Shown: positions 4,376-52,865 of the stretch, one piece after another
Layout: every line of letters begins with the position of its first letter
Position numbering within the stretch: position 1 is the stretch's first letter
IMG/VR virus record: IMGVR_UViG_3300046010_015054
Coordinates: 64,001-128,000 of that record
Reading direction: 5' to 3' (one strand)
Length of the DNA stretch: 64,000 nt
Source of the DNA: a virus
The notes under the pieces: generated by a model
Database searches by the model: none
Told to the model about the DNA's origin: nothing
The model's input: only the letters and a program-made list of their open reading frames with translations
Program-made: the position numbers and the translations under genes

Positions 4376-4406
4376 TAAATATACTAAACATACTAGTTGG
4401 GGGCAA
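4376..4406 (-). promoter_or_regulatory. Bacteroidota sigma70-type promoter (TTG-N20-TATATTTA)
   Basis: -33/-7 elements with a 20-nt spacer in the intergenic gap. Confidence 0.55.
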
Positions 4407-4419
4407 GTTAAGTAAAAAA

Positions 4420-5208: not shown

Positions 5209-5223
5209 GTATTGTAAAATGTT

Positions 5224-5625: not shown

Positions 5626-5637
5626 TTTACAAATAAA

Positions 5638-31504: not shown

Positions 31505-33787
31505 TTATTTTTTTAGTAAAGGTTTAATTTTAGACATAACTAATTGTGGGGTAATTGATTTTTGACAAATATGTTGTTTATCAGTTCCTTTCCAAATAGG
31601 ACACCAATCCCAATCACCTGCATCAAACACAAAATTTGGATTAGTCCAACACGGAAAACAATTATCTGTTGTTATACGTGTAACACGAGAAGTAAATTCG
31701 TGGTTTTTTTCTGCAAAACCATTAATCATAGCTGTATGTTTCCCGATTGTCCAGTTCAACCAAGATAGACCTGAACCTAATCCAATAAATAAATCCGCAT
31801 GATAAAGATAATTAACTACTTTATCTATAGAATGCCCATAGTGATTAATGGTACCTGGAATTGTAAATTCTTTTTGTGTAAGAGAAATTATAGTATAACC
31901 TTGTTGGTTAAGTAATTTAACTAAAGCACACCAATATTCATACTTCCATTCTTTACAACCTGCTGTAGCATTAGGACCTATTACAATATATTTTTGTTTA
32001 TAAGGTCTTTCACCTTTAGGTACATTAATACCATAATTTAATTCTTTAAATTCTAACCCTAAAATATCTGTTGCAGTTGCTTGCATTGGGATAGTATTAC
32101 ATTGACGAGGGTGATAATTTGGGCTTTTCCAACCCCCATTTTCGTCTCTAAACCATCCTAATTTATAATGAGTAATACATTCAACAGCTGTTCCTGGGTT
32201 GGTGAATTCTATGTTTTTGTAAGCTTCTAATCCTTGGAACCAATCATTATGGAATGTAGAAAGTATAACTTTACAATTATGTTTTTTAGCAAATTCAACA
32301 ACATAAGGAACCCAACCAATGGTATCACCTATTGCTTTAGATTCTACCGTAATTAAAACTTTTTGATTAGTTAAATCTAATCTACTTGCTTCTTTACCAT
32401 CAATTTTTATTACCCAAGGTACATAGTACTCTGTACTACATTCAACCCACATATTATTGTTAATGGTTTGTGAATGGTGTACTTTACCGGTTGCAGAATC
32501 AATAAATTCTATAAAATAACTTTTGTTAATATTTCCTAAAATTTCTACTTTAGGTTTATTTAAATAACTAATATTTATTTTATTTTTATCTTCTACTTGA
32601 TTATATTCATCTAAAAATTCTTGTAAAGTATTCCGACCAATTTCAGCTACTTTATCCCAATTAAAATTTTGATGGATAATTTCAGACTCTTTATGTGCAC
32701 GTTTATAATGATCTTGATAATTTACGTAAGCATCTCTCATTACACGAGCTAAATCTTCAAAATCAGGTTCATAATAAGAACCTTCTACAAATTTTCCTTT
32801 ATAATTTGGATCCTTGGCAGGTAATTCTCCCCATACTTTTACAGGTAATCCTTTACCTTCAGCAAATTCCATTTGACCAGAGCATGCTGAGTAAATAGCT
32901 GGAGTACCACAAGCCATAGCCTCAATTAAAGGTAAATTCCATCCTTCACTACGAGCACAAGATAAAAATACATGACCTGTTTTTAAGTATTGAATGTAAT
33001 CTTCTCTAGAAGGAAAATGTACTACTTTGATGCGAGGATCTTCTAAACCATAATGCTTTAATCTATCTTCAGTAGTTTTTAAACCATCATCTGCAAATGG
33101 GTTATCAACCGAAAGTATTAAATCAACTTTCTCATCTGGTTTGAATTCTTTAAGAAAGGTTTCAATTATTTCTTTTGTAGATTTTCTATATTCCCAACGC
33201 CCAAACATTACAAATTTAAACCTATTATCCAAATATTCTTCTGGGAGTAATAGGTAGGGTTCAATTTTAAAGATATTAGTGTCTACACCCTCAGGTACAA
33301 CTTTTACTTTTTCAGCAGGCATACCTTGCTTAATAGTACATTCAGCTTGCCATTTTGAAGGTACCCAAATTTGATCAAATTCTTTTAATTTATTAAAAAA
33401 ATTTTCAGGTTGTAAAGTAGATTCCCAAACATTATATGCAATTTTAGGACCTACGTAATTATCATAAAAATAATGATGACCCGTAGCTTCTAAAATAATA
33501 TTAACATTATGTTTAAAATTATTTTCATAATTTTTATATATAGGAGAATCTTGCCTTTCGTAATCTACAAAAAGTGTTTGTTCAACTAATAATTTTTTAT
33601 CTAAATCATTTAAATAAGGTTCATTATTATGAGGTTCATCTTTATAACCTTCCCAAGTTTTACCTGCAGGAAAATTTCTAACTTTTACATCAAGATGTTT
33701 AGATAAATGTCTAAAAAAATCTCTTGTATGATTAGCGTAACCTGTAGGGCCTATATAAGGTCCGTGTGCATAAACTTTTGGTTTCAT
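31505..33787 (-). CDS. Fusion: GT4 glycosyltransferase + Aah/TibC-like (BAHT) protein O-glycosyltransferase
   Basis: N-half TGY, RSEGWNLPLIEAMACG (GT4). C-half AIGDTIGWVPY, YIVIGPNATAGCKEW, FIGLGSGLSWLNW, CFPCW...WCP...C, like the Fe-binding Cys set of autotransporter heptosyltransferases. Confidence 0.85.
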   Translation of the reverse strand: MKPKVYAHGPYIGPTGYANHTRDFFRHLSKHLDVKVRNFPAGKTWEGYKDEPHNNEPYLNDLDKKLLVEQTLFVDYERQDSPIYKNYENNFKHNVNIILEATGHHYFYDNYVGPKIAYNVWESTLQPENFFNKLKEFDQIWVPSKWQAECTIKQGMPAEKVKVVPEGVDTNIFKIEPYLLLPEEYLDNRFKFVMFGRWEYRKSTKEIIETFLKEFKPDEKVDLILSVDNPFADDGLKTTEDRLKHYGLEDPRIKVVHFPSREDYIQYLKTGHVFLSCARSEGWNLPLIEAMACGTPAIYSACSGQMEFAEGKGLPVKVWGELPAKDPNYKGKFVEGSYYEPDFEDLARVMRDAYVNYQDHYKRAHKESEIIHQNFNWDKVAEIGRNTLQEFLDEYNQVEDKNKINISYLNKPKVEILGNINKSYFIEFIDSATGKVHHSQTINNNMWVECSTEYYVPWVIKIDGKEASRLDLTNQKVLITVESKAIGDTIGWVPYVVEFAKKHNCKVILSTFHNDWFQGLEAYKNIEFTNPGTAVECITHYKLGWFRDENGGWKSPNYHPRQCNTIPMQATATDILGLEFKELNYGINVPKGERPYKQKYIVIGPNATAGCKEWKYEYWCALVKLLNQQGYTIISLTQKEFTIPGTINHYGHSIDKVVNYLYHADLFIGLGSGLSWLNWTIGKHTAMINGFAEKNHEFTSRVTRITTDNCFPCWTNPNFVFDAGDWDWCPIWKGTDKQHICQKSITPQLVMSKIKPLLKK

Positions 33788-33788: not shown

Positions 33789-34538
33789 TTATCTCATTAT
33801 TGAACAACCCCCATCTAGTCCTCTATATCCATCAAAACCATGATAAATAGGACAAATTGGAACTCCGTGATTTCTTAAATGCTGTCTGAGTAAAGTTTCA
33901 TTAACAAACATATCATAATAGTACTGGTAATATTCAGGGTTTACAAAGATTGTTCGTAACATTTCAGGAAAGACATTATGGTAGGTTTTCATAACATCAT
34001 ATCCCCCAACAGCAAAAGTATCATTAAGTTGATCAGCCATACCCCATCTATCAGGATATTCAAAAAAATTAACTGCTTCAGGGTTTACTTTAGTAATGTC
34101 TTCTAAGAAGATACAATTTTCAGCTACTCTATGTGTCCAAAGTAAATCATATCTTGTTTTTATTACCAAATCATATTTAATACCGGAATTTTCTAACAAA
34201 TCCCAAGATCGTTTTAAAGATAACCACATTCCCATTTGGGAATTTAAGCGTTGGTTATTTTGTCCTTTTAAATCTGTAGCATCAAACTTTATTGCTTTTT
34301 CAAATAAATGTTTTTTAGGCTGATACCAATCTAATAGATTTTTGTAAGTATTTTGATCAACATTATAAACACGTTGCAATTTACCTTCATTAAAAAAATC
34401 ATACTTGTAAAAATGTTTATCAACCCAAGCATGCATATACACATCAATATCATATCGATCTAAAAACCAACGTTTTAGTTCTTTAAAACCATGTTTGTAT
34501 CTACGTGGCTGACCACTAATTGTTAAAGCTATTTTCAT
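33789..34538 (-). CDS. Putative glycosyltransferase-like protein (MKIA-ISG-PR family), paralog 1
   Basis: MKIALTISGQPR, DVYMHAW, YDLVIKTRYDL, NDTFAVG, ETLL; clearly paralogous to the next gene. Confidence 0.5.
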   Translation of the reverse strand: MKIALTISGQPRRYKHGFKELKRWFLDRYDIDVYMHAWVDKHFYKYDFFNEGKLQRVYNVDQNTYKNLLDWYQPKKHLFEKAIKFDATDLKGQNNQRLNSQMGMWLSLKRSWDLLENSGIKYDLVIKTRYDLLWTHRVAENCIFLEDITKVNPEAVNFFEYPDRWGMADQLNDTFAVGGYDVMKTYHNVFPEMLRTIFVNPEYYQYYYDMFVNETLLRQHLRNHGVPICPIYHGFDGYRGLDGGCSIMR

Positions 34539-35299
34539 CGAATAATATGGGCATGAAAATGTTTGGTTAAACTTTCAACATAATTTACCTCTACATTATT
34601 TTTTAGCATTACATGCCATTTTAAAAGACTTTCAGCAACAGTTTTATCCGCTGTACTTGTGACAGTTTTTAACCATTCACCATAATCTGGGTCTATAAAA
34701 ATGTAGTTAAGTATATAACAAAAATAATCAGAATAAATTTCAGCAATATGAGGTCCACTAACTATAAATTGATCATCAATTTCAGATGTTCGTTGAGGGA
34801 ATCCATTAATATCTGGGTATTTAAAGCAATTATATTTGTTAGGATCTAATTGAGTAATGTCTTTTAGAAAGATACATTTAGGAGATACATACTTAGTAAA
34901 TTGAAGATCAAATCTATATCTAATAATATAATCATATTCAATACCGGATTCACGTACTAAATTATAACAAGCATGAATTGAATAAGCAGCACTTAAAATA
35001 TTATGTAATTTATAATTTAAATGAGATCCGCGAATATCGGTTTCATCAAACGGTATAGGTGTTTGAAATTCGTATGCTTTAGGTTTATATAATTTTAAAA
35101 TTTTATCATAATCACTTTGTGTAAAAGTGTATGTTTTTTTTTCTAAAAAATCATGTCCAGTTTCAAAGACTGATGTAGTATCATACCAAGTATGGATGTA
35201 AACATCACAATCATACTTGTTTAAGAACCATTTTTTTAGTTCTTTAAAACCTAAATCATAATTGCGGGGTAAACCGCTTATACAAATTGCTACTTTCAT
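34535..35299 (-). CDS. Putative glycosyltransferase-like protein (MKIA-ISG-PR family), paralog 2
   Basis: MKVAICISGLPR, DVYIHTW, YDYIIRYRFDL, DDQFIVSG, ESLL. Confidence 0.5.
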   Translation of the reverse strand: MKVAICISGLPRNYDLGFKELKKWFLNKYDCDVYIHTWYDTTSVFETGHDFLEKKTYTFTQSDYDKILKLYKPKAYEFQTPIPFDETDIRGSHLNYKLHNILSAAYSIHACYNLVRESGIEYDYIIRYRFDLQFTKYVSPKCIFLKDITQLDPNKYNCFKYPDINGFPQRTSEIDDQFIVSGPHIAEIYSDYFCYILNYIFIDPDYGEWLKTVTSTADKTVAESLLKWHVMLKNNVEVNYVESLTKHFHAHIIR

Positions 35300-35921: not shown

Positions 35922-38273
35922 TTAAGGATTTGTAAAAGAAATTAAAATATATCGGGTTCCTTCGATTACAGGACGTCCCCCGTGTTTGTGAGTAATTTGA
36001 CCAGGATGAGCCATAGCATATCCTTTTCTTTGAGGTTGGATTGTTAATTTATAGCGAGGGATAAAAGTACCACCTCCTTTAAATTCATCATTTAACCTAA
36101 CATTTAATGTAATAGCTGAGCTATCGTGGTGAATATCTAAGCTACCTTGATTATTTGTATCATATTTAGCAATAAAGTTTTCACTTTTTGAAGTTTGCCA
36201 ATTATTACCTTCAAGTTCCCAAAACCAAATCCAAATAGGATAAACAAATTGTTCTAGAACTTTTTGATAGATTTTTTGCATCTTTAAACTTTCCATAGTT
36301 TGGTCTGTTGTAGGATAAAAAGTATGTCTATCAGTTTTCCATTCATTTTGTTCAGCTAAAGCTATTACTTCATCACAGAATTTTTCAGTAAATAATGGGA
36401 ATTCAATAATATTAGGACCAATTTCATCAGTCATAAGCTTATATTGTCCTTTTAAAATATAAGGATCAATATATTTTTTACACCACTCTTCCCAGTTACT
36501 ATCATCTAAAATTTCAATTATAGGTTTATTACCTTCAGTTACTCCTACACTTTTATCTTGTTCAAAATAATTAACTTTTGGAGCAGCTACTTTTAATTTA
36601 GGTAGATCAGCAAAATCTGCTAAAATATCTTGACGATGAGTCATACCAAAAGTAATTGATAAAAACTCATCTAAAGCAAATATTTTACTTTTATAACGAG
36701 GGATCCACTCTTCTACTAGCTTTTGAACACCTGAACGTGATAAAATGTAGGCGTGTGAGTTATATGAATAATCAGGCTCTACCCAATTTCTAAATCCTTC
36801 TATAGGTTTTTCTAAATCAGGTTTAAGAGCATTACGTCCTAAATAAATCATATCATATCCTTTATCTAAAAGAGATTTTATATTTTCCCAGTTTACTGGG
36901 AGTTGTTCTTTAAAATCTTCTTCTAGAATAAAAGTTATTTCTCTATCATATTCATAAGCATCAACCCAAGCATCAATATGAGCTAAGGCACATCCTACTT
37001 CTCCATCTGTTACTTCGCGATTCCACCAATGACAACTACTTTCGATTTTCCAATTTGGGTGTTTTTTAACACCAAATTTTACTAAATCTTTTTGTGTTAA
37101 AGTGCGATAATCAAAACCAGTTTTTACCCAGTAGTTATAAAAACCAGGCATAGATAATTTATCGCATTTATCTTTAATTTGCTGAGTTTCATTTAAAGCT
37201 ATAACGTAAAAATGATCTAAATTCATATTTAATTTTAATAATAAAGGTATCCAGTTTCTTATTGTTACATACCACCAGTCAAGTGAATATACGTAATTTT
37301 GTGCTAATTGCCAATTTATATTGTCATTTTCATTAAGAGCATTAAAACCATGTAATGTTTCTTTTAAACCACCCCATTCCCAAGTAATAGGTAATACTTG
37401 ATGGCCTAACATTTCTAAAGCTGTTAAGCAAAATGTTTCTTCATATGTTGAAGGATAGTACCAATATTGACTATCCGCCATTAATTTATATAATTCTTTT
37501 TCGGGTAATGTACCTAAAAATTCTACATCATCCAAACTATCTACCCATTCTTTATAATATTGATTATAATATTCTAAACCATATTCAGGAGTACAAATTT
37601 TTAAGCTAGAATCAGGGGCTTCTTGTTTAATTTGAGGCCAATCTTCTAATACTCTAGCTAAACCTCTTTCAGCATGAGATGAATAGATATATTGATTTTT
37701 ATTTTTTTGATATAATTGAGAAGTTGGTTTTGGGAAGATTAAACCTTTTATTGCTTGGGGTTCAGGAAAAGTTTTTATAATTTTGCTAGCATCAATACCA
37801 TAACCAATAATTTTAATTTTACTTTCGGTTTCTGGGTATTGTTGGAGCCAAATTTCTCTATGCCATTTAGTTAAGCATATAATATATTTAAGTTTAGGAT
37901 GGATTAATAATTCTCTATGATTAGGTATTTCTTCTCCATTCCACCAATTATAATAATCGGTATTACTAAGCCAAAATATAGAATTTTTATAATTAAAATC
38001 TTCAAATTCTTTTAAATAATGTATATAATTTATTCCAATAATAGTATCAACTGAAGATTCTTCTTGTTTAAATTGTTTAGTAGTTCTATATTTTACATTA
38101 TCAAAATCTCCAGGAATAACATTTCCAACTACCCAAATATAATATTCAGGGAGTTTGGCTAATTCTTGTGCTAAATAATAAGTGGTTTTTTCTGTACCTC
38201 CTAAACCGGTAGTTTCTATAGAAGAAGGACCCCAAGGAGTTTTGTGATAACCTGTGTATAAAACTATTTTCAT
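35922..38273 (-). CDS. Tri-domain fusion: GT4-like glycosyltransferase + GT25 (COLGALT-like) + PLOD-type lysyl-hydroxylase 2OG-Fe(II) domain
   Basis: GLGGTE...ERGL...YPSTYEETFCLTALE (GT-B); GEVGCALAH--AW...ILEED...YLGR...HAYILS--G (GT25); FPLFTEKFC...YPTTD...FIAKY---Q-SL--HHDSS--TLNV-LN--F-GGG...HPG--TH-H-G-P---GTRYI-ISF (PLOD C-terminus). Start set at MKIVLY, downstream of the terminator and late motif. Confidence 0.85.
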   Translation of the reverse strand: MKIVLYTGYHKTPWGPSSIETTGLGGTEKTTYYLAQELAKLPEYYIWVVGNVIPGDFDNVKYRTTKQFKQEESSVDTIIGINYIHYLKEFEDFNYKNSIFWLSNTDYYNWWNGEEIPNHRELLIHPKLKYIICLTKWHREIWLQQYPETESKIKIIGYGIDASKIIKTFPEPQAIKGLIFPKPTSQLYQKNKNQYIYSSHAERGLARVLEDWPQIKQEAPDSSLKICTPEYGLEYYNQYYKEWVDSLDDVEFLGTLPEKELYKLMADSQYWYYPSTYEETFCLTALEMLGHQVLPITWEWGGLKETLHGFNALNENDNINWQLAQNYVYSLDWWYVTIRNWIPLLLKLNMNLDHFYVIALNETQQIKDKCDKLSMPGFYNYWVKTGFDYRTLTQKDLVKFGVKKHPNWKIESSCHWWNREVTDGEVGCALAHIDAWVDAYEYDREITFILEEDFKEQLPVNWENIKSLLDKGYDMIYLGRNALKPDLEKPIEGFRNWVEPDYSYNSHAYILSRSGVQKLVEEWIPRYKSKIFALDEFLSITFGMTHRQDILADFADLPKLKVAAPKVNYFEQDKSVGVTEGNKPIIEILDDSNWEEWCKKYIDPYILKGQYKLMTDEIGPNIIEFPLFTEKFCDEVIALAEQNEWKTDRHTFYPTTDQTMESLKMQKIYQKVLEQFVYPIWIWFWELEGNNWQTSKSENFIAKYDTNNQGSLDIHHDSSAITLNVRLNDEFKGGGTFIPRYKLTIQPQRKGYAMAHPGQITHKHGGRPVIEGTRYILISFTNP

Positions 38274-38300
38274 AAACCTATATATAATATAAATATAAAA

Positions 38301-38321
38301 GGGGGACATTCAAAGTCCCCC
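38301..38321 (-). terminator. Intrinsic terminator after the collagen genes
   Basis: GGGGGAC-N7-GTCCCCC followed by TTTT on the minus strand. Confidence 0.8.
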
Positions 38322-38344
38322 TTATTAAAAATACTTATAAATTT

Positions 38345-41300
38345 TTAAACTAATTCTAGTTTTTCAAATTTAACATCAATTTTGCTATAGTCTACAGCAT
38401 AATAACCATTTTCAGCTATTACCACAGCGTCTTCAAATTGTGTTCCTAATAATTCTTGAGCCATTACACCAATATATCTAGTATTAGGATCATTAATGTA
38501 ATTATACTCGTAAATATTAATACCTAATTTAGATACACCTATTTTTACAATATTTTCTTTTAATCTAATATCTGATGTTTTTCTGTATTGAAGATAACCA
38601 TCGGCAAAATCTAATGTTTGTGAAAAATTTACTGTAAATAATTTAAAATTTACAGTTAAACCTATAGGTCCAGTACCTTCAGCCCCAATAAGACCTCTAG
38701 AACCAATAGGACCACGAGGGCCGATAGGACCTCTAGGACCTTGAGGACTAGAACCAACAGCACCAATAGGACCACGAGGACCAATATTACCAATAGGACC
38801 TTGAGGGCCTTGAATAGTACTAGCTGGGCCTCTATTGCCCCGAGGGCCTTGTACTCCTATAGGTCCTATAGGACCTTGTGGGCCCGGACCAATAGGACCA
38901 ATTATACCTCTAGGACCTTGGGGTGCAACGCCAATTGGGCCAATATTACCAATAGGACCAATTGGACCCCATGGACCACGAGGACCAATAGGACCTTGTA
39001 TGCCTTGTGGACCTTGTGGGCCCGGGCCTATAGGACCAATAATGCCAGTAGGTCCAATAGGACCTCTAGGACCAATGTTACCAATAGGGCCTTGAATGCC
39101 CTGTGGACCTTGTGGGCCAGGACCAATTGGACCAATATTACCAATAGGACCAATTGGACCCCATGGACCACGAGGACCAATAGGACCTTGTATGCCTTGT
39201 GGACCTTGTGGGCCCGGGCCTATAGGACCAATAATACCTTGAGGACCAATAGGACCTCTAGGGCCTACAATATCAGTTACATCTCCTGCAATGCCTTTAG
39301 GACCTTGAATGCCTGTAGGGCCTTGAATACCTTGTGGGCCTTGAGGACCAGGTCCAATAGGACCTATAATACCTTGGGGTCCTCTAGGACCAATAGGACC
39401 AATGTTACCAATAGGGCCTTGAATACCTTGTGGACCTTGAGGTCCAGGACCTATAGGGCCGATAATACCTTGAGGACCACGAGGACCAATGTTACCAATA
39501 GGGCCAATTGGGCCTATTATACCCCGTGGACCAATAGGACCAGGTCCAATATTACCAATAGTACCTTGTGGACCTATATTTCCAATTGGACCCTGAATAC
39601 CTTGAGGACCACGAGGTCCAATAGGTCCTTGTGGGCCTGGTCCAATAGGACCAATAATGCCAGTAGGTCCAATAGGACCCCAAGGACCTCGCGGACCAAT
39701 AGGGCCTATAATACCCTGAGGGCCTTGAGGACCAGGACCTATAGGGCCTATTATACCTTGAGGACCACGAGGACCAATAGGACCTTGAATATCATTTATA
39801 TCACCCGGAATACCTTTAGGACCTATAATACCTGTGGGGCCTTGAATGCCTTGTGGACCTTGTGGGCCAGGACCTATAGGACCTATAATACCCTGAGGTC
39901 CTCTAGGGCCAATAGGACCAATGTTACCAATAGGGCCTTGAATGCCCTGTGGACCTTGTGGGCCAGGACCTATAGGACCTATAATACCCTGAGGTCCTCT
40001 AGGGCCAATAGGACCAATGTTACCAATAGGACCTTGAATGCCCTGTGGACCTTGTGGGCCTGGGCCAATAGGGCCGATAATACCTTGAGGACCAATATTA
40101 CCCCGAGGACCTTGTATTCCTTGAGGGCCTTGAATACCCTGAGGTCCTTGTGGACCTGGGCCAATTGGACCTTGAATTCCAATAGGTCCAATAGGACCCC
40201 AAGGACCTCGTGGGCCAATAGGGCCTATAGTACCTTGAGGACCTTGTGGGCCCGGGCCTATAGGACCAATAATACCTTGAGGACCAATAGGACCACGAGG
40301 ACCTATAGCATCAGTTACATCTCCAGCAATACCTTTAGGACCTATAATACCTGTGGGGCCTTGAATGCCTTGTGGACCTTGAGGTCCGGGACCTATAGGA
40401 CCAATAATACCCTGAGGTCCCCGAGGACCAATAGGACCTTGTGTACCTTGCGGGCCTTGAATACCCTGAGGCCCTTGTGGGCCTGGACCAATTGGGCCTT
40501 GGATACCTAAAGGACCTCTAGGACCAATAGGACCAATGTTACCAATAGGACCTTGAATACCTCGCGGGCCTTGTGGACCCGGACCAATAGGACCTATAAT
40601 ACCTTGAGGACCACGAGGGCCAATAGGGCCTTGAAGATCACCAGTATCACCTGGGATACCTTTAGGACCTTGTATGCCTGTAGGTCCTTGGGTACCTTGC
40701 GGGCCTTGTGGACCTGGACCAATAGGACCGATAATACCTTGAGGTCCTCTAGGACCAATAGGCCCTTGAATACCTTGTGGACCCTGAATGCCCTGTGGGC
40801 CTTGAGGTCCAGGACCGATTGGACCCTGAATGCCTAAAGGTCCTCTAGGACCAATTGGGCCTATATTGCCAATAGGACCTTGAATACCTTGTGGACCTTG
40901 AGGTCCAGGGCCTATAGGACCAATAATACCTTGTGGACCTCTAGGACCAATAGGTCCCTGAGTACCTTGTGGGCCTTGTATGCCTTGTGGGCCTTGTGGT
41001 CCAGGTCCAATGGGGCCTTGAATTCCAATAGGTCCAATAGGACCCCATGGACCTATTAAACCACGAGGACCTTGAATACCTTGTGGGCCTTGTGGTCCTG
41101 GTCCAATAGGGCCTATAATACCTGTAGGACCTTGAATACCTTGAGGTCCTATTAAACCTCTTGGACCTTGTGGACCTTGTGGTCCTGGTCCAATAGGACC
41201 TATAATTCCTTGTGGTCCACGAGCGCCAATAGGACCTTGTATACCTTGTGGACCTTGTGGACCTTGTGGTCCTGGTCCAATAGGACCAATTATACCTCTT

Positions 41301-41707
41301 GGTCCTTGTAAGCCTTGTGGTCCTTGAGTACCTTGTGGACCTTGAATACCACGTGGACCTTGCGGTCCTTGATTGCCTCTAGGACCTTGTGTACCCCTAG
41401 GACCTTGTGGTCCTTGTAAATCAATTGGTGTTCCTGTTTTACTAGTAACAATTAAAGCTTCAGCAGGTGCATCAAATCGTAAAGCACCCGTTCTATTAGA
41501 AACAAGAACTGTATTAGGTACTACAAATCCAGCATTACTATTAATTTCAATACCTGTTGGTTTAATAGTAAATATATCAACACTACCACTTTGGACTGCT
41601 AAATCTCCTGTAACATTATTAAAAGTAAAATCTATAGCTTTACCATTTGAACTTTCAATAAATTCAAGGCTACCTGATTTAGGTATTATTTTAACATTTT
41701 TAGCCAT
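38345..41707 (-). CDS. Collagen-like fibre chain A with C-terminal peptidase S74-type intramolecular chaperone
   Basis: ~920 aa of Gly-X-Y with periodic GP doublets; C-terminal SDIRLKENI...IYEYNY...GVMAQE. Confidence 0.9.
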
Positions 41708-44620
41708 AGATTATTAAGGGTTATAAGCTGTTAATACTCCGGCTACATAATTAAATGAAGGGTTACCTCCACTAGTATTAAGAGCAAAAGTTGTAGTAAC
41801 TCCAGTTGGTGCATTATTACCTGCTGGGCCCTGAGGACCAATGGGGCCTTGAGGACCAATAGGACCAATAGGACCAATAGCGCCTGTAGCACCTGAAGGG
41901 CCAATAGGACCTTGTGGGCCAATGGGTCCAATGTTACCAATAGGACCTTGAGCACCAGATGCACCAACAGGACCAATAGGACCCTGAATACCTTGTGGGC
42001 CTATATTTCCAATAGGACCAGTTGGGCCAATAGGACCAATAGGACCTTGAGGACCAATAGGGCCTGTAGGACCGATAGGGCCAATAGGACCAATATTACC
42101 TTGAGGGCCTTGTGGTCCAATGGGGCCAATATTACCAATTGGACCTTGGGGGCCAATAGGACCTGTAGGGCCAATAGGACCAATAGGACCTTGTGCACCA
42201 ATAGGTCCGATAGGGCCAATAGGACCAATATTACCAATTGGACCTTGAGGACCAATAGGGCCTGTAGGACCAATTGGGCCAATAGGGCCAATATTACCTT
42301 GGGGACCTTGAGGACCTATAGGACCGATATTACCAATTGGACCTTGCACACCAATAGGACCTGTAGGACCAATAGGACCGATAGGACCCTGTGGGCCGAT
42401 AGGACCAATAGGGCCTTGGGGGCCTGGAGCTTGATTATCTCCTTTAGGTCCAATTGGGCCTTGAGCGCCAATAGGGCCTTGAGGGCCAATAGGACCAGTT
42501 GGACCGATTGGACCAATAGGACCCTGTGGACCAATAGGACCAATAGGACCTATGGGACCAATATTACCAATAGGACCTTGAGGGCCAATAGGACCAGTTG
42601 GGCCAATTGGACCGATTGGACCTTGAGGACCAATTGGACCAATGTTACCAATTGGACCGATTGGACCAATAGGACCTTGAGGACCAATAGGGCCTGTAGG
42701 ACCAATAGGGCCAATAGGACCTTGTGGACCAATGGGGCCAATATTACCAATTGGACCTTGAGGACCAATAGGACCAATAGGACCAATGGGGCCAGTAGGT
42801 CCTATAGGACCAATAGGACCTTGGTTACCTTGTGGACCTTGTGGACCAATTGGACCAATAGGACCAATAGGACCTTGAGGGCCAATAGGTCCAGTAGGAC
42901 CAATGGGGCCGATAGGACCTTGAGGACCAATAGGACCGATAGGACCAATGGGGCCAGGTGCTTGGTTGTCTCCTTTAGGACCAATAGGACCTTGTACTCC
43001 AATAGGACCTTGAGGACCAATTGGACCCGTAGGACCAATAGGACCGATAGGGCCTTGAGGACCAATTGGGCCAATAGGGCCAATAGGACCAATATTACCA
43101 ATTGGACCTTGAGGACCAATAGGACCTGTAGGACCGATAGGGCCAATAGGGCCTTGGGGTCCGATAGGACCAATAGGACCTATAGGACCAATATTACCAA
43201 TTGGACCTTGGGGGCCAATAGGACCTGTAGGACCGATAGGACCGATAGGACCTTGTGGGCCGATTGGACCAATAGGACCAATTGGGCCTTGAGCTCCAAT
43301 AGGACCTTGTGGACCTATAGGACCTGTAGGACCAATAGGACCGATAGGGCCTTGGTTTCCTTGAGGACCCTGTGGGCCAATAGGACCGATAGGACCGATA
43401 GGACCTTGTGGGCCGATTGGACCAGTTGGTCCGATAGGACCAATTGGACCTTGAGGGCCGATAGGTCCAATAGGACCTTGAGGACCAGGTGCTTGGTTAT
43501 CTCCTTTAGGTCCAATAGGACCTTGTACTCCAATAGGACCTTGTGGACCAATCGGGCCAGTAGGACCAATTGGGCCAATAGGACCCTGTGGGCCAATAGG
43601 ACCAATGGGACCAATAGGGCCTTGAGCTCCAATAGGACCTTGAGGACCAATTGGACCTGTAGGACCGATAGGACCTATAGGACCTTGAGGACCTTGAGGA
43701 CCAATAGGGCCAATAGGGCCTATAGGACCTATGGGACCTTGTGGACCGATCGGACCAGTTGGACCAATTGGACCAATAGGGCCTTGGGGGCCAATCGGAC
43801 CAATAGGACCGATAGGGCCCGGAGCTTGGTTGTCTCCTTTAGGTCCAATAGGACCTTGTGCACCTATAGGACCTTGTGGGCCAATAGGACCAGTTGGGCC
43901 AATTGGACCGATTGGACCTTGAGGACCGATAGGACCTATAGGACCAATTGGGCCTTGAGCTCCAATAGGACCTTGTGGACCTATAGGGCCAGTTGGGCCA
44001 ATTGGACCTATGGGACCTTGAGGACCAATTGGACCAATAGGACCGATGGGGCCGATAGGACCTATGGGACCTTGAGGGCCAATTGGACCAGTTGGACCAA
44101 TTGGACCAATAGGACCTTGTGGGCCGATAGGACCAATCGGACCGATAGGACCAATTGGACCAATAGGACCTTGAGGACCGATAGGACCCGTAGGACCAAT
44201 TGGGCCAATAGGGCCTTGGTTACCTATAGGACCTTGTGGACCAATTGGACCTTGAGGACCGATTGGACCTTGTGGGCCGATAGGACCTGTAGGACCGATA
44301 GGACCAATTGGGCCTTGAGCACCAATAGGACCCTGTGGACCAATGGGGCCAATTGGGCCTTGTGGGCCTTGAGGACCTGTAGGACCGATAGGACCAATTG
44401 GACCTTGAGGACCGATAGGGCCAATAGGGCCGATAGGACCCTGTGGGCCAATAGGACCAATAGGACCTGTAGGGCCGATAGGACCGATAGGGCCCTGAGG
44501 ACCAATAGGACCAATAGGGCCTATGGGACCTTGTGCTCCAATAGGGCCTTGTGGTCCAATAGGACCAATAGGACCTTGTGGGCCTTGTGGACCTTGAGGA
44601 CCAATTGGACCTTGAGGACC
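38680..44620. repeat. 9-bp-unit degenerate tandem repeats encoding collagen Gly-X-Y (two blocks, ~38680-41420 and ~41820-44620)
   Basis: ggaccaata / ggaccttga units with heavy synonymous variation; 11-triplet super-period. Confidence 0.95.
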
Positions 44621-44914
44621 ACCACCTGTTATGGTTCCAGCTGTACCTTCTACTTCTAAAGTATTTGTACCACTATTAAACCAAACTTGTCCTGGGATTG
44701 GTGAAGAAGGAGAGGATCCTACAACAGGTAATACAAAAGTAGCATTATTAGCAATGGCTAAACTGCCACTATCAATAGTAGCAATGTTAACAGAACCACT
44801 TTTGATTGTTAATTGACCCGCTGATGCAAAATCAAATTTAATTTCTTTACCTACAGCAGTATCTTGGAAATTTAAGCTACCTGATTTTGGTATTATCTGT
44901 ACGTTTTTTGCCAT
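41714..44914 (-). CDS. Collagen-like fibre chain B (no chaperone domain)
   Basis: ~935 aa of near-perfect Gly-Pro-(I/Q/T); N-terminus paralogous to chain A ([14 protein letters not shown]). Confidence 0.9.
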
Positions 44915-44936
44915 CTTTTATATATACTAATAAATA

Positions 44937-47900
44937 TTAGCCTTTTACGGGATATTCAACTATTAATTTCGGATCTACTTTTCTTTCTGCAAATACTACG
45001 TAATAAGCGTTTACTTCTCCACATTCACATGCTACCACGACTTGTTCAACTGACGCTGATAATACGTAGTGAGTACATGATTTTCCAATAGGTGTTAATT
45101 GTACTGATAGGCTATCATGGTATACTAAATCTTTCCAGTAATCAGGTAATGTAATTACTCCATCTCCTTCTACTTTACCTCTAATATACACACCAGTTTC
45201 TGGTCCCTCAAGCACTGAGTAGCGAAGTCTCCATCCTTCTTTTGAAGGGTGTGGTATATCAAAGTTTTTAACGTTACCATTGATTTCATTAAAGTTATTA
45301 ATATTAGAAGTTCCGGCACCATCAATATTACCAGTACCATCCATAGTAATGTTTCTAACATTACTAACATCAGTATTGTTCATATCAATGCCACCTTGAA
45401 CACTAATATCTCCGTTAACTCCTAATGTTGTGCCAGTAAATGTTAAGTTAGCTTCACCATTAATTAGACCAGCGGTACCAGTTGCGGTTAATACGTAGTT
45501 GTTAGTATTGTTGTTTATAGTAGCAGCGCCTGACGTACCTGATGAACCTGATGAGCCACTAGAACCGCTAGTACCACTAGAACCGGATGAACCTGATGAA
45601 CCGCTTGTACCTGAAGAGCCTGATGTACCACTAATGCCTATACCTGATGAACCTGAAGAACCTGATGTTCCTGAAGTGCCATTTACACCTGATAAACCTG
45701 AAGAACCAGATGTTCCAGAAGAGCCGCTTGAACCAGATGAGCCTGAGCTACCACTTGAGCCACTTGTACCTGATGAACCTGAAGTTCCTGATGAACCTGA
45801 AGTTCCTGATGAACCTGATGAGCCTGAACTGCCAGAAGATCCTGAACTGCCTGAAGTACCAGAGGAGCCTGAAGAACCACTAGTTCCTGATGAGCCTGAG
45901 CTACCTGAAGAGCCACTTGAACCTGATGTACCAGAAGAGCCTGAACTACCACTTGTGCCTGATGAGCCTGAGCTACCTGAAGATCCAGAAGAGCCACTAG
46001 TACCTGATGAACCTGAACTTCCTGACGTGCCTGATGAACCTGATGAGCCTGATGAGCCTGAAGTACCAGATGAGCCACTTGAGCCAGATGTTCCTGAAGA
46101 ACCTGAACTACCTGATGAACCTGATGAACCTGAAGTACCACTAGTTCCGTTTATACCTGATAAACCTGAAGAACCAGATGTTCCGCTTGAACCAGATGAG
46201 CCTGAGCTGCCACTTGTACCTGAAGAGCCTGAAGTTCCTGATGAACCACTAGTTCCTGAAGAGCCTGAACTACCTGAAGAACCAGAACTTCCACTAGTAC
46301 CTGATGTTCCGCTTGAACCTGAAGTACCTGATGAGCCTGAACTTCCACTTGAACCTGATGAACCTGAACTACCTGAAGTACCTGAAGTTCCTGAAGTACC
46401 ACTAGAACCAGATGTTCCTGATGAGCCTGAAGAACCAGAGCTGCCTGAAGATCCTGAAGTACCAGACGAACCTGAGCTTCCGCTAGTTCCTGATGAACCA
46501 CTAGAACCTGAGCTGCCTGATGAGCCTGATGTTCCTGAAGAACCACTTGTACCTGAAGTACCGGATGAACCACTTGAACCAGATGAACCTGAACTACCTG
46601 AAGTTCCTGATGTACCGTTAATACCACTTAAACCTGATGAGCCACTTGTACCAGATGAACCTGAGCTACCTGATGAGCCTGAAGAGCCACTAGTACCTGA
46701 AGTACCTGAACTGCCTGAAGTACCTGAACTACCGCTTGAACCTGATGAACCAGAGCTTCCGCTAGTTCCTGAGGTACCACTTGAACCTGATGTTCCTGAT
46801 GAACCACTTGAACCAGATGAACCTGAAGAGCCACTTGTACCTGAAGTACCAGATGAACCACTTGTTCCTGATGAGCCTGAAGAACCTGATGAACCAGAAG
46901 AACCACTTGTACCTGAAGTACCTGATGAACCACTAGTACCAGAAGTACCTGATGAACCTGAAGAGCCACTTGAGCCACTTGAACCAGAAGTTCCTGAAGA
47001 ACCTGAAGTACCTGAAGAACCTGAGCTACCACTTGTACCTGATGAGCCACTTGAACCTGAAGTTCCAGATGAGCCACTTGTTCCAGAAGTACCATTAATA
47101 CCACTTAAACCTGATGATCCAGATGTACCTGAGGTACCAGATGAACCTGATGATCCTGATGTGCCTGATGTTCCGCTTGAACCTGAAGTGCCTGATGTTC
47201 CTGATGAACCAGATGAACCAGAACTTCCACTAGTACCTGATGTACCGCTTGAGCCAGAAGTTCCTGATGAACCTGAGCTACCTGAAGATCCTGATGAGCC
47301 GCTAGTTCCTGAAGTTCCTGATGAACCGCTTGAACCTGATGTACCTGAAGAGCCACTTGAACCACTTGAACCGGAAGTACCACTTGTACCTGAAGTACCA
47401 TTTATACCTGAAAGGCCTGATGAACCAGATGTTCCTGAAGAACCTGAAGTTCCGCTAGTTCCTGATGAACCTGAGCTGCCTGATGTTCCTGATGAACCTG
47501 AAGTACCAGATGAGCCATCTGTACCACTAGTTCCTGATGAGCCACTAGAACCTGAACTACCACTTGAACCAGATGTTCCGCTTGAACCTGAAGTTCCGCT
47601 TGAACCTGAAGAGCCACTTGAACCACTAGTTCCTGAAGTACCAGATGAACCACTTGTTCCTGATGAACCTGAACTACCTGAACTGCCTGATGTACCGCTA
47701 GTACCTGAAGTTCCGTTTATACCGCTTAAACCTGAAGAACCTGATGTTCCTGAAGAGCCAGATGTACCTGAAGTACCTGAACTGCCTGATGAGCCCGAGC
47801 TACCACTTGTACCAGATGAACCATCTGTACCAGATGTACCACTTGAACCTGAAGAACCTGAAGTACCACTTGTACCACTTGTTCCTGAAGAACCTGAAGA

Positions 47901-50900
47901 TCCTGAAGTGCCGCTTGAACCTGAACTACCGCTTGAACCTGAAGAACCTGATGTTCCACTAGTACCTGAAGAGCCATCCGTACCTGAGGTACCTGATGAA
48001 CCAGATGAACCTGAAGTACCTGAAGTTCCGTTTATACCTGAAAGACCTGATGATCCTGAAGTACCTGAAGTACCTGAAGAACCACTAGTTCCACTTGAAC
48101 CTGATGAGCCTGAACTACCTGAGGTTCCACTTGTACCTGAAGATCCGTCTGTACCTGATGTACCTGATGAACCGCTTGTTCCTGATGAACCTGATGAACC
48201 TGATGTACCAGATGAACCTGAAGAACCACTTGTTCCTGATGAACCATCTGTACCTGAAGTACCTGAGCTACCTGAAGAACCTGAGCTACCTGAAGTGCCA
48301 GATGAACCATCTGTACCACTTGTACCCGAAGTACCTGAAGTACCATTAATACCACTTAAACCTGAAGATCCAGATGTACCTGAAGTGCCTGAACTTCCTG
48401 AAGTACCTGATGAGCCTGAGCTACCTGATGTTCCTGAAGATCCTGAAGTACCAGATGAGCCATCTGTACCAGATGTACCTGAGGAACCACTAGTTCCTGA
48501 TGAACCACTAGAACCTGAAGTTCCACTAGAGCCTGAACTACCTGAAGTACCACTTGAGCCATCTGTACCTGAAGTACCAGATGAACCAGATGATCCTGAG
48601 CTGCCTGAAGTACCAGATGAGCCATCTGTACCGCTTGTGCCTGAAGTACCTGAAGTACCATTAATACCACTTAAGCCAGAAGAACCACTTGTTCCTGAGC
48701 TACCTGAAGTACCACTTGTTCCTGAAGAACCTGAGCTACCACTTGTACCACTAGTTCCTGATGAACCATCTGTACCTGAGGTACCGCTTGAACCTGATGT
48801 TCCTGATGAGCCACTTGAACCCGAAGTTCCAGATGAACCAGAACTACCTGAAGTGCCTGAAGAACCATCTGTACCAGATGTTCCTGAAGATCCTGAACTA
48901 CCTGAGCTACCACTAGTGCCTGAAGTACCTGAGCTACCATCTGTACCACTTGAACCTGAAGTTCCAGAAGTACCACTTGTTCCGTTTATACCTGATAAAC
49001 CAGAAGAACCACTTGTTCCGCTTGTACCTGAAGAACCATCTGTACCACTTGTACCAGATGAACCAGATGTACCACTTGAGCCACTAGTTCCTGAAGATCC
49101 GTCTGTACCTGAAGTTCCTGAAGAACCGCTAGTACCTGATGAGCCTGAACTACCACTTGTGCCTGATGAGCCTGAACTACCTGATGTACCTGATGAACCA
49201 TCTGTGCCGCTTGTACCAGATGAACCTGAACTACCACTAGTACCTGAAGTACCTGAAGAACCATCTGTACCTGAAGTACCTGATGAACCACTTGTACCTG
49301 AAGTGCCATTTATACCTGAAAGACCTGAGCTACCTGATGTGCCACTAGTACCTGAAGTACCATCTGTACCACTTGTACCAGAAGTGCCACTTGTACCCGA
49401 AGAACCATCTGTACCTGAGGTGCCAGATGAACCATCTGTCCCTGAAGTTCCTGATGAACCTGAAGATCCAGATGTTCCTGATGAACCACTTGAACCAGAT
49501 GTACCTGAAGTACCTGAAGAGCCATCTGTACCTGAAGTACCGCTTGAACCATCAGTACCTGAAGTACCACTTGTGCCGGATTCACCTGAGGTTCCTGATG
49601 AACCACTTGTACCTGAGGTGCCGTTTATACCGGATAAACCTGAAGATCCGCTGGTTCCGCTTGTGCCTGAAGAACCATCTGTACCAGAAGTACCAGATGA
49701 GCCAGATGTTCCGGATTCACCACTTGTACCAGATGAACCATCTGTACCAGAAGTGCCTGAAGTACCTGATGTACCATTTATACCTGAAAGACCAGATGAA
49801 CCAGAGGTACCAGAAGAACCATCTGTACCCGAAGTACCAGAAGTGCCACTAGAACCATCTGTACCCGAAGTACCTGAAGAACCATCGGTACCACTTGTAC
49901 CTGATGAACCACTAGTACCTGAAGTACCATTAATACCACTTAATCCCGAACTTCCACTTGTTCCGCTTGTACCTGAAGATCCGTCTGTACCTGAAGTACC
50001 CGAAGAACCGCTTGTACCTGATTCACCGCTTGTACCCGAAGAGCCATCAGTTCCTGAAGTACCAGAAGTACCGCTTGTTCCGTTTATACCTGAAAGGCCT
50101 GAAGAGCCTGAAGTGCCAGATGAACCATCTGTACCAGATGTGCCTGATGAACCACTTGTGCCAGAAGTACCTGAAGAACCGTCTGTACCTGAAGTACCGC
50201 TTGAGCCATCAGTACCTGAGGTACCACTTGTACCTGAGGTTCCATTAATACCGCTTAAACCTGATGAACCTGATGTACCACTTGAACCATCTGTACCAGA
50301 TGTACCAGAAGAACCACTAGTTCCTGATGAACCAGATGTACCTGAACTACCATCTGTACCTGAAGTGCCACTTGAGCCATCAGTACCTGAAGTGCCACTT
50401 GTTCCGTTTATACCTGAAAGGCCTGAAGAGCCTGAAGTGCCACTTGTACCAGATGAACCATCTGTACCAGATGTGCCTGATGTTCCGCTTATACCTGAAC
50501 TACCATCTGTACCTGAAGTACCAGATGAACCATCTGTTCCTGAAGTTCCTGATGTGCCGCTTGTTCCGTTTATACCAGACAAACCAGAACTACCTGAAGT
50601 GCCACTTGAGCCATCAGTACCTGAAGTTCCTGATGAACCACTTGTACCACTTGTACCACTTGTGCCTGATGAGCCATCTGTACCTGATGTTCCTGAAGAA
50701 CCATCTGTACCACTTGTACCAGAGGTTCCATTAATTCCTGAAAGGCCTGAACTACCACTAGTACCTGAAGTGCCATCTGTACCACTTGTACCAGAAGTAC
50801 CACCTGTACCTGAAGTACCACTTGAACCATCTGTACCTGATGTACCTGAAGTACCATCTGTACCACTAGTTCCAGAAGTACCATTTATACCACTTAAACC

Positions 50901-52865
50901 TGAAGATCCGCTTGTTCCACTTGTACCAGATGAACCATCTGTACCAGAGGTACCAGAGGTACCAGAAGTGCCTGAAGAACCATCTGTTCCTGATGTTCCT
51001 GATGAACCATCTGTACCTGAGGTACCGCTTGTGCCCGAAGTACCATTTATACCACTTAAACCTGAAGAACCTGAGGTACCTGAAGTACCACCTGTACCAC
51101 TTGTACCAGAAGTACCACCGGTACCTGAAGTGCCACTTGTTCCTGAAGTTCCGGATTCACCACTTGAGCCTGATGTTCCAGATGTACCATTTACACCTGA
51201 TAATCCTGATGTGCCTGAGGTTCCTGAAGTACCTATACCTGAAGTTCCACTTGAACCACTTGTTCCAGAAGTGCCATCTATACCTGATGTACCTGAAGTA
51301 CCTGCTTCTCCTGAAGTGCCACTTGTACCCGAAGTACCATTAATCCCAGAAGTTCCTGATGAACCATCTGTACCTGAGGTACCACTAGTACCTGATTCTC
51401 CTGATGTGCCTGATGTTCCTGAAATTCCACTTGTACCTGAAGTACCAGATTCACCACTTGTTCCACTTGTACCAGATTCTCCAGAGGTACCTGAAGTACC
51501 AGACTCACCTGAAGTACCGGATGTACCTGAAATTCCTGATGTACCTGATGTACCCGAAGTACCTATACCAGAAGTGCCAGAAGTTCCTGATGAACCATCA
51601 GTACCTGAAGTGCCACTAGTACCTGATTCTCCTGATGTACCTGAAGTACCAGTTTCACCTGAAGTACCACTTGTGCCTGAAGTACCAGAAGATCCTGAGT
51701 CTCCTGAAGTGCCTCCTGTAATAGTTACTAATACTGCTGTACCTGATCCTGTTGATTCAACTTGTACACCACTACCAGTAAAGTAGAACGCACCGATATT
51801 GGTATCAACGAGTGAGCCCGTATAATAAATTGTAGTACCAATAGTAACGTTAACTTCTCCTGGATTACTGCCAGTTTCTGCAACTACACCTGATCCTGTA
51901 AAGTTAATTAGTGTAGCGTTTGTTGTTAAGACAAAATTTTCGTCTGAAATTGTAATAGCAGAACCTGCTCCTGAAGTACCTGAGGTACCGCTAGTACCAG
52001 TTTCACCTGAAGTACCACTTGTACCAGATGATCCTGAAGAGCCTATGCCTGAAGTACCTGAGGTACCACTTGTTCCTGAAGTTCCTTCACCTGATGTACC
52101 AGAAGTGCCACTTGTACCATTAATACCAGAAGTACCTGAAGTACCATCAGCACCCGAAGTACCACTTGTACCTGATGTGCCTACGCCTGAAGTGCCAGAT
52201 GAACCATCTGTACCTGAAGTACCACTTGTTCCTGATGTACCTACACCTGAAGTACCAGATGAACCATCTGTACCTGAAGTACCTGATGTGCCTGAAGAAC
52301 CGATACCTGAAGTACCGGAAGAACCATCTGTACCAGATGTTCCTGAAGTACCTGAAGAGCCTGTACCTGATGTACCTGAAGTACCATCTGTTCCAGATGT
52401 GCCGCTGGTACCTGATGTGCCTACACCTGAAGTACCTGAAGTGCCATCTGTACCTGAAGTACCTGATGTGCCTGAAGAACCGATACCTGAAGTACCACTT
52501 GTACCAGATGAACCATCTGTACCTGAAGTACCTGAAGAACCTATACCTGATGTACCTGAAGTACCACTTGTGCCTGAAGTTCCTGAAGAACCTGAAGAAC
52601 CTGAAGAACCAGAACCACCACCAGTACCAGTAATTGTAATAGTAGCACCATTTGAACCAGACGCTTCAACAAAAACCCCACTACCTGTAAAGTTTAATGT
52701 TGCAACATTTGATACAACTAATGAACTTGTGTAGTAAATATTAACTGCTCCACCTATACCGGAAGTACCTGAAGTACCTGAAGTGCCATCTGTGCCACTT
52801 CCTCCACCGGTTGACTGAAAACTCCCAATTGATATTTGGTCTAAAAATCTAGCGTTACTGGCCAT
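44937..52865 (-). CDS. Giant Ser/Thr/Gly (Gly-X-Y) repeat fibre protein with C-terminal chaperone-like domain, 2642 aa
   Basis: >2000 aa of SGT/SGS/DGS triplets; C-terminal KNFDIPHP...LRY--LEGPE-GVY-RG domain typical of phage fibre chaperones. Confidence 0.88.
45530..51710. repeat. 9-bp-unit degenerate tandem repeat encoding SGT/SGS triplets
   Basis: cctgaagta / cctgatgaa / ccacttgta units; SGLSGING nodes at regular intervals. Confidence 0.95.

Follow-up and report, generated by a model that had tools for sequence, protein, structure and literature searches.

Natural heterotrimeric collagens are, to our knowledge, documented only in animals. C1q, with its A, B and C chains, and type IV collagen are heterotrimers whose chains carry matched interruptions of unequal length. 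The selection of chains by non-collagenous domains has been reviewed (PMC8968730, PMC5353611). The collagen-like proteins Scl1 and Scl2 of Streptococcus, BclA of Bacillus and the EPclA-type fibre proteins of Escherichia coli prophages are described as homotrimers, each made from a single gene (PMC8968730, PMC3368898). Here we describe two neighbouring collagen-like genes, chain A and chain B, in a 64,000-nucleotide stretch of viral DNA, referred to as the window (bases 64001–128000 of the 170-kb IMG/VR virus record IMGVR_UViG_3300046010_015054, which is rated complete). The two chains very probably co-assemble in register and co-evolve. A preliminary description of the window had proposed such co-assembly; the register and its mirrored evolution in relatives stand as observations, and the physical association of the chains is what we infer from them. 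Its remark that the known collagens of prokaryotes and phages are generally homotrimers agrees with the review (PMC8968730).

Both chains contain long Gly-X-Y runs and match the collagen family PF01391, with 293 bits for chain A and 392 bits for chain B (cut-off 27.2). Each helix contains recurring short interruptions, here called marks, and four breaks that follow lysine residues. The chains are composed of the following parts:

41714–44914, minus strand: chain B gene (type-1 chain), 1066 amino acids (aa), N-terminal domain, helix and 29-aa C-terminal domain, without peptidase S74 module
44621–44914, minus strand: chain B N-terminal all-β domain, aa 1–98, with the family-wide start MAKNVxIIPxSGSLxF
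41804–44620, minus strand: chain B collagen helix, aa 99–1037 (939 residues), about 308 Gly units, 25 Gly-Pro-Thr marks, four GPK-GDNQAP breaks
41717–41803, minus strand: chain B short C-terminal domain, aa 1038–1066, GVTTTF...GVLTAYNP, paralogous to that of chain A
41708–41713, minus strand: 6-nt spacer from the chain B stop to the chain A start, without a terminator
38345–41707, minus strand: chain A gene (type-2 chain), 1120 aa, N-terminal domain, helix, 29-aa C-terminal domain and S74 module
41414–41707, minus strand: chain A N-terminal domain, aa 1–98
38663–41413, minus strand: chain A collagen helix, aa 99–1015 (917 residues), about 307 Gly units, 24 Gly-Pro doublets and one GVAPQ, four GPK breaks
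38576–38662, minus strand: chain A short C-terminal domain, aa 1016–1044, GLTVNF...GYLQYRKT
38348–38575, minus strand: peptidase S74 module of chain A, aa 1045–1120 (76 aa), SDIRLKENI...

The N-termini of A and B are paralogous (34 of 64 residues identical, 53%, E 2e-18), and so, more weakly, are the segments that follow the helix (18 of 50 identical, E 2e-8), as the preliminary description had it. The structure model of the N-terminal domain is all β, with a predicted local distance difference test (pLDDT) value of 82.7. A Foldseek search of the PDB with this model gave no hit with E of 0.001 or less, and the top-ranking entry, 7chu (E2 protein of a Geobacillus virus), reached only E 0.27 and TM 0.46. 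No PHROG family matches either N-terminal domain, and no cultured phage among 50,697 phage records carries it. The N-terminal domain of chain B is a probable virion anchor or chain-selection domain.

The phage chains resemble C1q and type IV collagen in being encoded by separate paralogous genes, in their equal number of Gly units, and in interruptions that are matched in position and chain-specific in length. They also share non-collagenous end domains that could serve in chain selection, and X-Lys-Gly lysines that are encoded next to an enzyme of the lysyl hydroxylase (LH) and COLGALT type. They differ in that sequence kinship does not extend beyond Gly-X-Y, and the end domains of the phage chains, a 98-aa β domain at the N-terminus and a 29-aa domain at the C-terminus, are unrelated to the animal ones. 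The marks of the phage chains are strictly periodic (10–11 units) and always one residue apart in length, proline occupies the X position without the classical X-Pro-Gly hydroxylation pattern, and co-assembly is read from sequence patterns. With the prokaryotic and phage collagens, chains A and B share PF01391 repeats set between small trimerisation domains, and a use as fibre shaft. The repeats of BclA are GPT-rich, like those of the phage chains. The locus differs from these single-gene systems in having two, elsewhere three, paralogous chains that co-evolve in register, and a hydroxylase/glycosyltransferase cassette beside them; its helices are about 10 times longer than that of Scl2.

Register of the two chains

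Each helix was split at its Gly residues into units; for chains with Gly in X or Y positions a dynamic-programming parse was used. The reading frames and the helix lysine codons of the preliminary description are correct, the latter lying at 40663, 40336, 39817 and 39298 in chain A and at 43840, 43507, 42976 and 42445 in chain B. They encode residues 349, 458, 631 and 804 of A, and 359, 470, 647 and 824 of B, which are spaced by 109/173/173 and 111/177/177 aa, respectively. Counted in units, the lysines occupy positions 86, 123, 181 and 239 in A, and 87, 123, 181 and 239 in B. The spacing of 37 and 59 Gly units that had been claimed for the first two intervals holds in both chains when six- and seven-residue units count as two, and the third interval is 59 units in both. 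The helix is broken right after GPK, as quoted before, and in chain B the break reads GDNQAP all four times.

The marks follow the same register. Gly-Pro doublets of chain A are located at units 16, 26, 36, 47, 58, 69, 80, 95, 106, 117, 131 and onwards to 269 and 284, with GVAPQ at unit 280. Chain B has Gly-Pro-Thr at units 17, 27, 37, 48, 59, 70, 81, 95, 106, 117, 131 and onwards to 269, 280 and 285. The unit numbers of the marks are thus identical from unit 95 to unit 269, and one unit apart before the first Lys break. Unit counting in both chains also confirms the positions 9, 20, 31, 42 and 53 after each Lys at which marks had been reported. The intervals between marks read 10, 10, 11, 11, 11, 11, 15, 11, 11, 14, 11x4, 14, 11x4, 14, 11, 11, 15 in A, and 10, 10, 11, 11, 11, 11, 14, 11, 11, 14, 11x4, 14, 11x4, 14, 11, 11, 11, 5 in B, so that 3 of 24 positions differ. 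Altogether, the chains share 25 marks (Gly-Pro in A, Gly-Pro-Thr in B) and four Lys breaks, and this register is far beyond chance. The computed length of about 265 nm and the period of 11 units (triplets) bear out the earlier estimate of a fibre of about 270 nm with an 11-triplet period.

The sequences of the modules between marks co-vary as well. Chain A contains GPW in modules 3, 11, 16, 21 and 23. Of the 24 modules, these five and no others have GN[QI] in chain B, at an offset of two units after GPW. The combinatorial odds of this coincidence, 1 in about 42,000, are not taken as a real p-value because duplication of repeats makes the modules non-independent.

Mirrored patterns in related genomes

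Relatives of the locus, designated here by L numbers, were gathered through the non-repetitive gene downstream of the chains and through the N-terminal domain. The preliminary description had raised the question of whether insertions and deletions in either chain have counterparts in its partner, and changes in length and spacing are indeed mirrored within the genomes of relatives. Where relatives have the same marks as the window, the spacing pattern varies between genomes and is mirrored inside each genome. The two chains of L018 have 34 marks, and the 33 intervals are equal in both (10x10, 11, 11, 10x7, 9, 10, 9, 9, 10, 9x5, 8, 9, 9, 10). Chain A of L041 and chain B of L037 have 15 marks with the common intervals 10, 11, 11, 11, 11, 12, 11, 11, 10, 10, 10, 10, 11, 11. 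The visible stretch common to both chains of L039 reads 11, 10, 10, 10, 10, 11, 11. The edit distance between interval strings is 0–3 for cognate pairs and 14–29 for non-cognate pairs formed with the chains of other genomes.

More distant relatives have other marks. Chain 1 contains five-residue units (GTSPI, GSSPI), and chain 2 contains six-residue units in which the central Gly is absent (GPAAPQ, GTDAGI, GxNAPI). These five- and six-residue marks are mirrored in L048, L058, L095, L084, L065, L066 and L025. The intervals are 10, 10, 3, 10, 3, 3, 10, 3 ... in both chains of L048 and 3, 10, 3, 10, 10, 3, 10, 10, 10, 3 in both chains of L025, and each chain of L065 has its marks in groups of 10, 18 and 8. 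When chain 1 was compared with the chains 2 of 12 genomes, the chain 2 of its own genome ranked first in 8 genomes and second in a further 2. The two chains always differ by a single residue per mark (two residues versus three, or five versus six), as in L048 with 32 against 33 and 11 against 12 aa.

Co-variation of module types extends to the relatives with the same marks. Four module types occupy identical modules in both chains of L018. The only four acidic residues of its chain A, within GDR, are each positioned two units after one of the only four lysines of its chain B, so that Lys-Asp pairs occur four times out of four across the chains and never (0 of 4) within a chain. In L041 chain A and L037 chain B, GPK-GFT of the former and GLP-GDQ or GAQ of the latter coincide in modules 4, 6 and 8. 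In two of these (4 and 8), a pair of Lys in Y and Asp in X of the next unit (X+1) is found only across the chains, and charge pairs overall are formed in 5 of 5 cases across chains and in 3 of 5 within a chain. These offsets are those at which adjacent strands of a triple helix touch, as in KGE and KGD pairs.

The register could be a mere relic of tandem duplication, with the module layout inherited and unchanged since. A and B arose as tandem paralogues, and their synonymous sites approach saturation, whether the two genes are compared with each other or the repeats inside each gene, so the layout within the window could be old; dating of the higher-order repeats from synonymous sites was uninformative for the same reason. 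In a tree of 38 N-terminal domains, chain B of the window groups with chain B of L037 (support 96/88), and chain A of the window with chains A of L039 and L037 (97/89). Therefore, A and B had already been duplicated when these genomes diverged. An earlier tree with few taxa was borderline (approximately unbiased test, p 0.056 for a clade of A and B). Since the duplication predates the split and the patterns differ between the window and L037/L041, later changes in module number occurred in both genes. The orthologous A- and B-type chains of L037/L041, L039 and L018 differ from the window in the number and spacing of marks, yet match within a genome. The mirroring rule recurs with other types of marks in at least eight further genomes, and such repeat arrays change copy number readily, as indicated by family chains of 608 to 1430 aa. 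The patterns across genomes and the orthology tree rule out a simple duplication relic, to which we give next to no credence. Recent gene conversion was also rejected as the source of mirroring: A and B are 65–71% identical at the DNA level in register (about 67%) against 56–65% when shifted, their synonymous sites are near saturation, and such conversion is unlikely.

In 15 two-chain genomes, the collagen length of one chain is correlated with that of the other (r 0.83, uncorrected for phylogeny; mean difference of 57 aa against 146 aa when permuted). This correlation would also fit A and B being homotrimeric fibres that can replace each other, perhaps to reach different receptors, with selection acting on overall length alone, and the distal domains of chain 2 do vary widely (S74, LamG-like, PA14-like and carbohydrate-binding module (CBM)-like). 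However, selection on length does not explain identical irregular marks or co-varying types of modules, and neither chain of the window has a recognisable receptor-binding head, as the C-terminal domains measure 29 aa. We consider interchangeable fibres improbable.

Globular inserts are found within the collagen of chain 2 in some relatives. There are four CBM-like inserts in L022, three in L095 and two in L058, and chain 1 contains the motif GPV-GDK four, three and two times in the same genomes, with matching spacings of 44/49/65, 29/49 and 49 units. The CBM-like domains comprise about 50 aa with the pattern PWDN..YQVG.VVFYD...YVC....N..PTN..YWTRL (L022 5956–9978, L058 2816–6007, L095 2963–6223). 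Chain 2 of L025 has a PA14-like insert and a C-terminal domain of about 270 aa. The second CBM-like insert of L022 chain 2 contains an in-frame stop codon (7114–7116), after which the frame runs on for 954 aa; the stop may be a sequencing error, a sign of a pseudogene or a site of read-through.

One mixed helix or two fibres

We lean towards A and B winding into a single heterotrimeric triple helix. They would then be the two types of subunit in a single collagen-like fibre on the virion, with about 308 Gly units and a length of about 265 nm. The chains would pair unit by unit, with marks mostly 10–11 units apart, and 14–15 units apart where a Lys break intervenes. At each of the 25 marks chain A would be one residue short, with Gly-Pro opposite Gly-Pro-Thr, and the mismatch would be absorbed by a local bulge or stretch. 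Such non-helical sites are plausible by likeness to the interruptions of collagen IV and C1q. Each mark would thus form a built-in hinge, possibly a one-sided one, and four further breaks would follow the Y-position Lys at the matching unit in both chains. The short C-terminal domains, the N-terminal domains, or both would select the chains and set their register.

The main alternative is a pair of homotrimeric fibres, A3 nucleated by S74 and B3 held by its short C-terminal domain, which run side by side in register or along a shared periodic partner. We regard this arrangement as rather unlikely. The large globular inserts in chain 2 of L022, L025 and L058, with none in chain 1, speak for it, as it is simpler to imagine them as knobs of three chains that project from their own rod and contact GPV-GDK of the other. 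Described prokaryotic collagens are homotrimeric (PMC8968730), and the relatives with a single chain (L005–L013) must be homotrimers; they encode a giant Gly-Ser protein and one MAKNV chain with a 50-aa N-terminal domain and a long S74 module (for example L006, 10001–12358). However, it is the Gly units that are conserved between A and B, not the residues. This fits unit-by-unit packing in a single helix, whereas side-by-side rods would need equal physical length, and the drift of one residue per mark would put straight rods 6–12 nm out of step. The 33 identical irregular intervals, together with co-variation of triplets and Lys-Asp pairs found only across chains, would require two homotrimers to be in contact along their full length. 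We know of no six-chain collagen bundle of this sort in phage fibres.

The S74 module bears on the same question. Chain A matches PF13884 in residues 1045–1087 (27.6 bits, cut-off 22), starting with the motif S1045-D-I-R-L-K1050, and chain B has no match, so that only chain A carries the module, as had been noted. The C-terminal domain together with S74 has no sequence match in the PDB. The short C-terminal domain would be the mature C-terminus of chain A if S74 performs its predicted cleavage before Ser1045. The arrangement resembles S74 fibres and spikes of the endosialidase type and the intramolecular chaperone (ICA) domain of MYRF in that the Ser...Lys motif (SDIRLK) lies exactly at the end of the mature C-terminal domain. 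It differs in that the phage module is short (76 aa), optional and attached to varying types of chain, and follows a collagen helix, not a triple β-helix (PMC8326128, PMC6972908). In the studied cases, MYRF and endosialidase, S74/ICA domains form the homotrimer that performs the cleavage (PMC6972908, PMC8326128). This mode of action, with the module present on only one type of chain, favours two homotrimers.

In L039 (2–1783, plus strand), the S74 module is located on the B-type chain, and in the window on the A-type chain, both times attached precisely where the short C-terminal domain ends. The two modules are 89.5% identical. Their identity at the DNA level, 82.5%, is about equal to the 84% of the downstream enzyme gene, which argues that S74 was inherited along with the genome even though it is on the other type of chain. 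In L018, L037 and L041, S74 is absent from both chains and the register lock is kept. The lock is thus independent of S74, because most register-locked pairs lack the module, and this weighs against the two homotrimers. The earlier suggestion that chain B relies on the chaperone of chain A finds no support, given the module on the B-type chain of L039, its absence from the three other genomes and the homotrimeric action of S74/ICA domains.

The composition of a mixed trimer is hinted at by relatives with three tandem chains. These are encoded in L017 (2878–9984; 780/789/788 aa), L035 (3972–9976; 657/660/679 aa), L070 (3715–9971; 686/688/691 aa) and L093 (1685–8768; 782/778/786 aa), with parsed unit counts of 213/219/216, 171/176/170, 184/183/176 and 207/204/209. 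The chains are orthologous between these genomes, and the tree of N-terminal domains divides them into one type-1 chain and two sister chains of type-2-like descent. This ABC-like set hints at one B and two A chains per trimer in the two-gene phages.

A complex of two A C-termini and one B C-terminus was predicted and compared with a benchmark of 80 solved complexes and 110 mismatched pairs. Its score was 0.45 and that of the best control 0.01, a weak signal that does not separate mixed from pure trimers. The score set as the mark was reached by 58 of the 80 solved complexes and by 2 of the 110 mismatches; 7 of those 80 and both mismatches scored 0.60 or under. At least 77% of contacts are common to the runs, and the pLDDT of the partner is at least 60. 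A paralogue would probably pass this prediction too, and generic collagen likeness may drive the score.

Several observations weigh against a single mixed helix. Chain A of L037 lacks one module that is present in chain B of L037 and in chain A of L041, and the two modules are only 84% identical at the DNA level, which makes collapse during assembly no easy excuse. Chain 2 of L048 is shorter by one 29-unit repeat, the chains of L062 are badly mismatched (480 against 761 aa), and the lineage of L059 and L087 has no mirrored marks and has changed length independently. All the sequences are metagenome assemblies of repeats. In the window itself charge pairs do not discriminate, since Lys and Asp are both present at every break. 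Stable homotrimers seem within reach of either chain, with X positions rich in Pro and with Ile, Gln, Arg and Thr in Y. By analogy with the studied S74 proteins, the module of chain A would favour A3 in this phage, for which it is the strongest argument, because a 1:2 or 2:1 trimer holds only one or two copies of it. A difference of one residue between two types of chain cannot restore the canonical stagger unless the marks are locally non-helical.

A further genome, L090, was set aside as a counter-example. Its chains have 686 and 964 aa, and the 964-aa chain (2867–5776) has interruptions like those of chain 2 at its start and like those of chain 3 at its end, as judged against L073 and L093. 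Because of this hybrid pattern, the long chain was regarded as a recombinant or a misassembly.

Gene neighbourhood and predicted lysine modification

All genes of the window are on the minus strand, among them those of a contractile tail sheath protein (29331–31148) and PhoH. The nearest cultured phage by the tail sheath protein, which is 55% identical, is Flavobacterium phage vB_FspM_immuto. The source is an uncultured aquatic T4-like myovirus. Chains A and B are flanked by the following features:

44937–52865, minus strand: collagen-like protein of 2642 aa, Gly-Thr/Ser-Ser without proline, ending in a globular domain (PHROG 17490), upstream of chain B
44915–44936, minus strand: AT-rich 22-nt spacer 5' of chain B, containing ATATTTAT
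38299–38323, minus strand: intrinsic-terminator-like hairpin with a T-run, immediately 3' of the chain A stop
35922–38273, minus strand: fusion enzyme of a GT4-type glycosyltransferase (GT), a COLGALT1-like GT25 domain and a lysyl hydroxylase domain like those of LH3/PLOD and mimivirus L230
35299–35910, minus strand: 2-oxoglutarate (2OG)-Fe(II) oxygenase, PF13640, PKHD/PiuC-like with a distant likeness to prolyl 4-hydroxylase, part of the conserved cassette
33789–35299, minus strand: two paralogous proteins of about 250 aa, PHROG 13607, with a weak match to DUF7796
31505–33787, minus strand: 760-aa GT4+GT9 protein

The hairpin at 38323–38299 is the sole terminator-like site in 38000–45200. Because of its position after chain A and the 6-nt gap between the genes, chains B and A look like a co-transcribed B-A pair within one transcription unit. 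The spacer at 44915–44936 with ATATTTAT is a possible late promoter.

The 2642-aa protein matches PF01391 with 906 bits and has a recurring punctuation motif. Its C-terminal domain (NFDIPHP...) belongs to PHROG 17490, a family of unknown function. Proteins of PHROG 17490 are always located 5' of the chain genes in relatives, and we treat them as context outside of the A/B helix. The upstream Gly-Ser/Thr protein of relatives ranges from a 150-aa domain-only form (L017, 2404–2853) to open frames that exceed 3300 aa and are truncated at contig ends. The conserved gene order is the giant Gly-Ser/Thr protein, or a short carrier of its C-terminal domain, followed by one to three MAKNV chains, the glycosyltransferase-hydroxylase and the oxygenase.

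The lysyl hydroxylase domain of the fusion enzyme (residues 605–795) matches LH3 (6fxk, E 9e-26) and mimivirus L230 (6ax6, E 2e-25), and its GT25 domain (residues 398–557) matches COLGALT1 (9evj, E 7e-13) and PF01755 (30 bits). The true start of the enzyme is Met13 of the listed open reading frame (38273), as the listed start at 38309 is inside the terminator hairpin. Every multi-chain relative has the enzyme downstream of its chains, and no full-length LH/GT fusion was found in the 50,697 phage records. The PHROG 13607 paralogues and the GT4+GT9 protein complete the cassette, which is kept in all multi-chain relatives. Some relatives have an additional gene of about 190–200 aa between these cassette genes (L017 14564–15172, L015 4959–5516). 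The single-chain S74 relatives have no LH/GT enzyme within 7–10 kb downstream; therefore, the enzyme cassette goes with the multi-chain systems in this sample.

A viral collagen next to viral enzymes of the lysyl hydroxylase and collagen glycosyltransferase types is also found in mimivirus, with L230, a lysyl hydroxylase-glucosyltransferase, and R699 (PMC9546862, PMC5802723). The present locus differs in belonging to a bacteriophage, not to a giant virus of amoebae, and in the GT4-GT25-LH order within one 784-aa protein.

Each of the eight lysines in the two helices occupies the Y position before Gly, at matched units just before the four breaks. The Y position is not diagnostic of targeting by a lysyl hydroxylase, as Arg has the same Y bias. 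The X-Lys-Gly lysines are nevertheless the likeliest sites of modification, predicted from homology and gene order, because they have the substrate context of lysyl hydroxylases and adjoin an LH3/COLGALT1-like enzyme, of whose hydroxylase and glycosyltransferase activities they would be the probable substrates. Modification thus probably falls on Lys and not on Thr or Pro, the residues proposed in the preliminary description.

The spacing of 10–11 triplets corresponds approximately to one superhelical turn of a 10/3 collagen helix. We tentatively speculate, on odds that we judge to be against it, that this family of aquatic myoviruses builds obligate heterotrimeric fibres from two or three genes. 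A programmed mismatch of one residue between the types of chain at every 10th–11th triplet would create in-phase one-sided hinges and so make these fibres curved or coiled, and the LH3/COLGALT1-like enzymes of the phages would set glycosylated hydroxylysines at matched levels of the helix.

If A and B do share one helix and are modified in this way, no natural collagen before them, animals apart, would have combined mixed chains with enzymatic modification, and their pairing code could be read from co-varying repeats. They would also provide an expressible model of chain selection and register that uses small end domains and needs no animal chaperones, and co-varying residues can already be read from dozens of natural variants. 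Through their periodic one-residue mismatches, the chains offer a natural test of how well mixed helices tolerate interruptions, which bears on collagen IV and on diseases caused by Gly substitutions. The LH/COLGALT-like fusion enzyme would extend the collagen type of Lys modification to bacteriophages. For the phages themselves, the chains define a new kind of fibre of about 265 nm that is widespread, with occurrences in fresh water, in estuaries and in the ocean.

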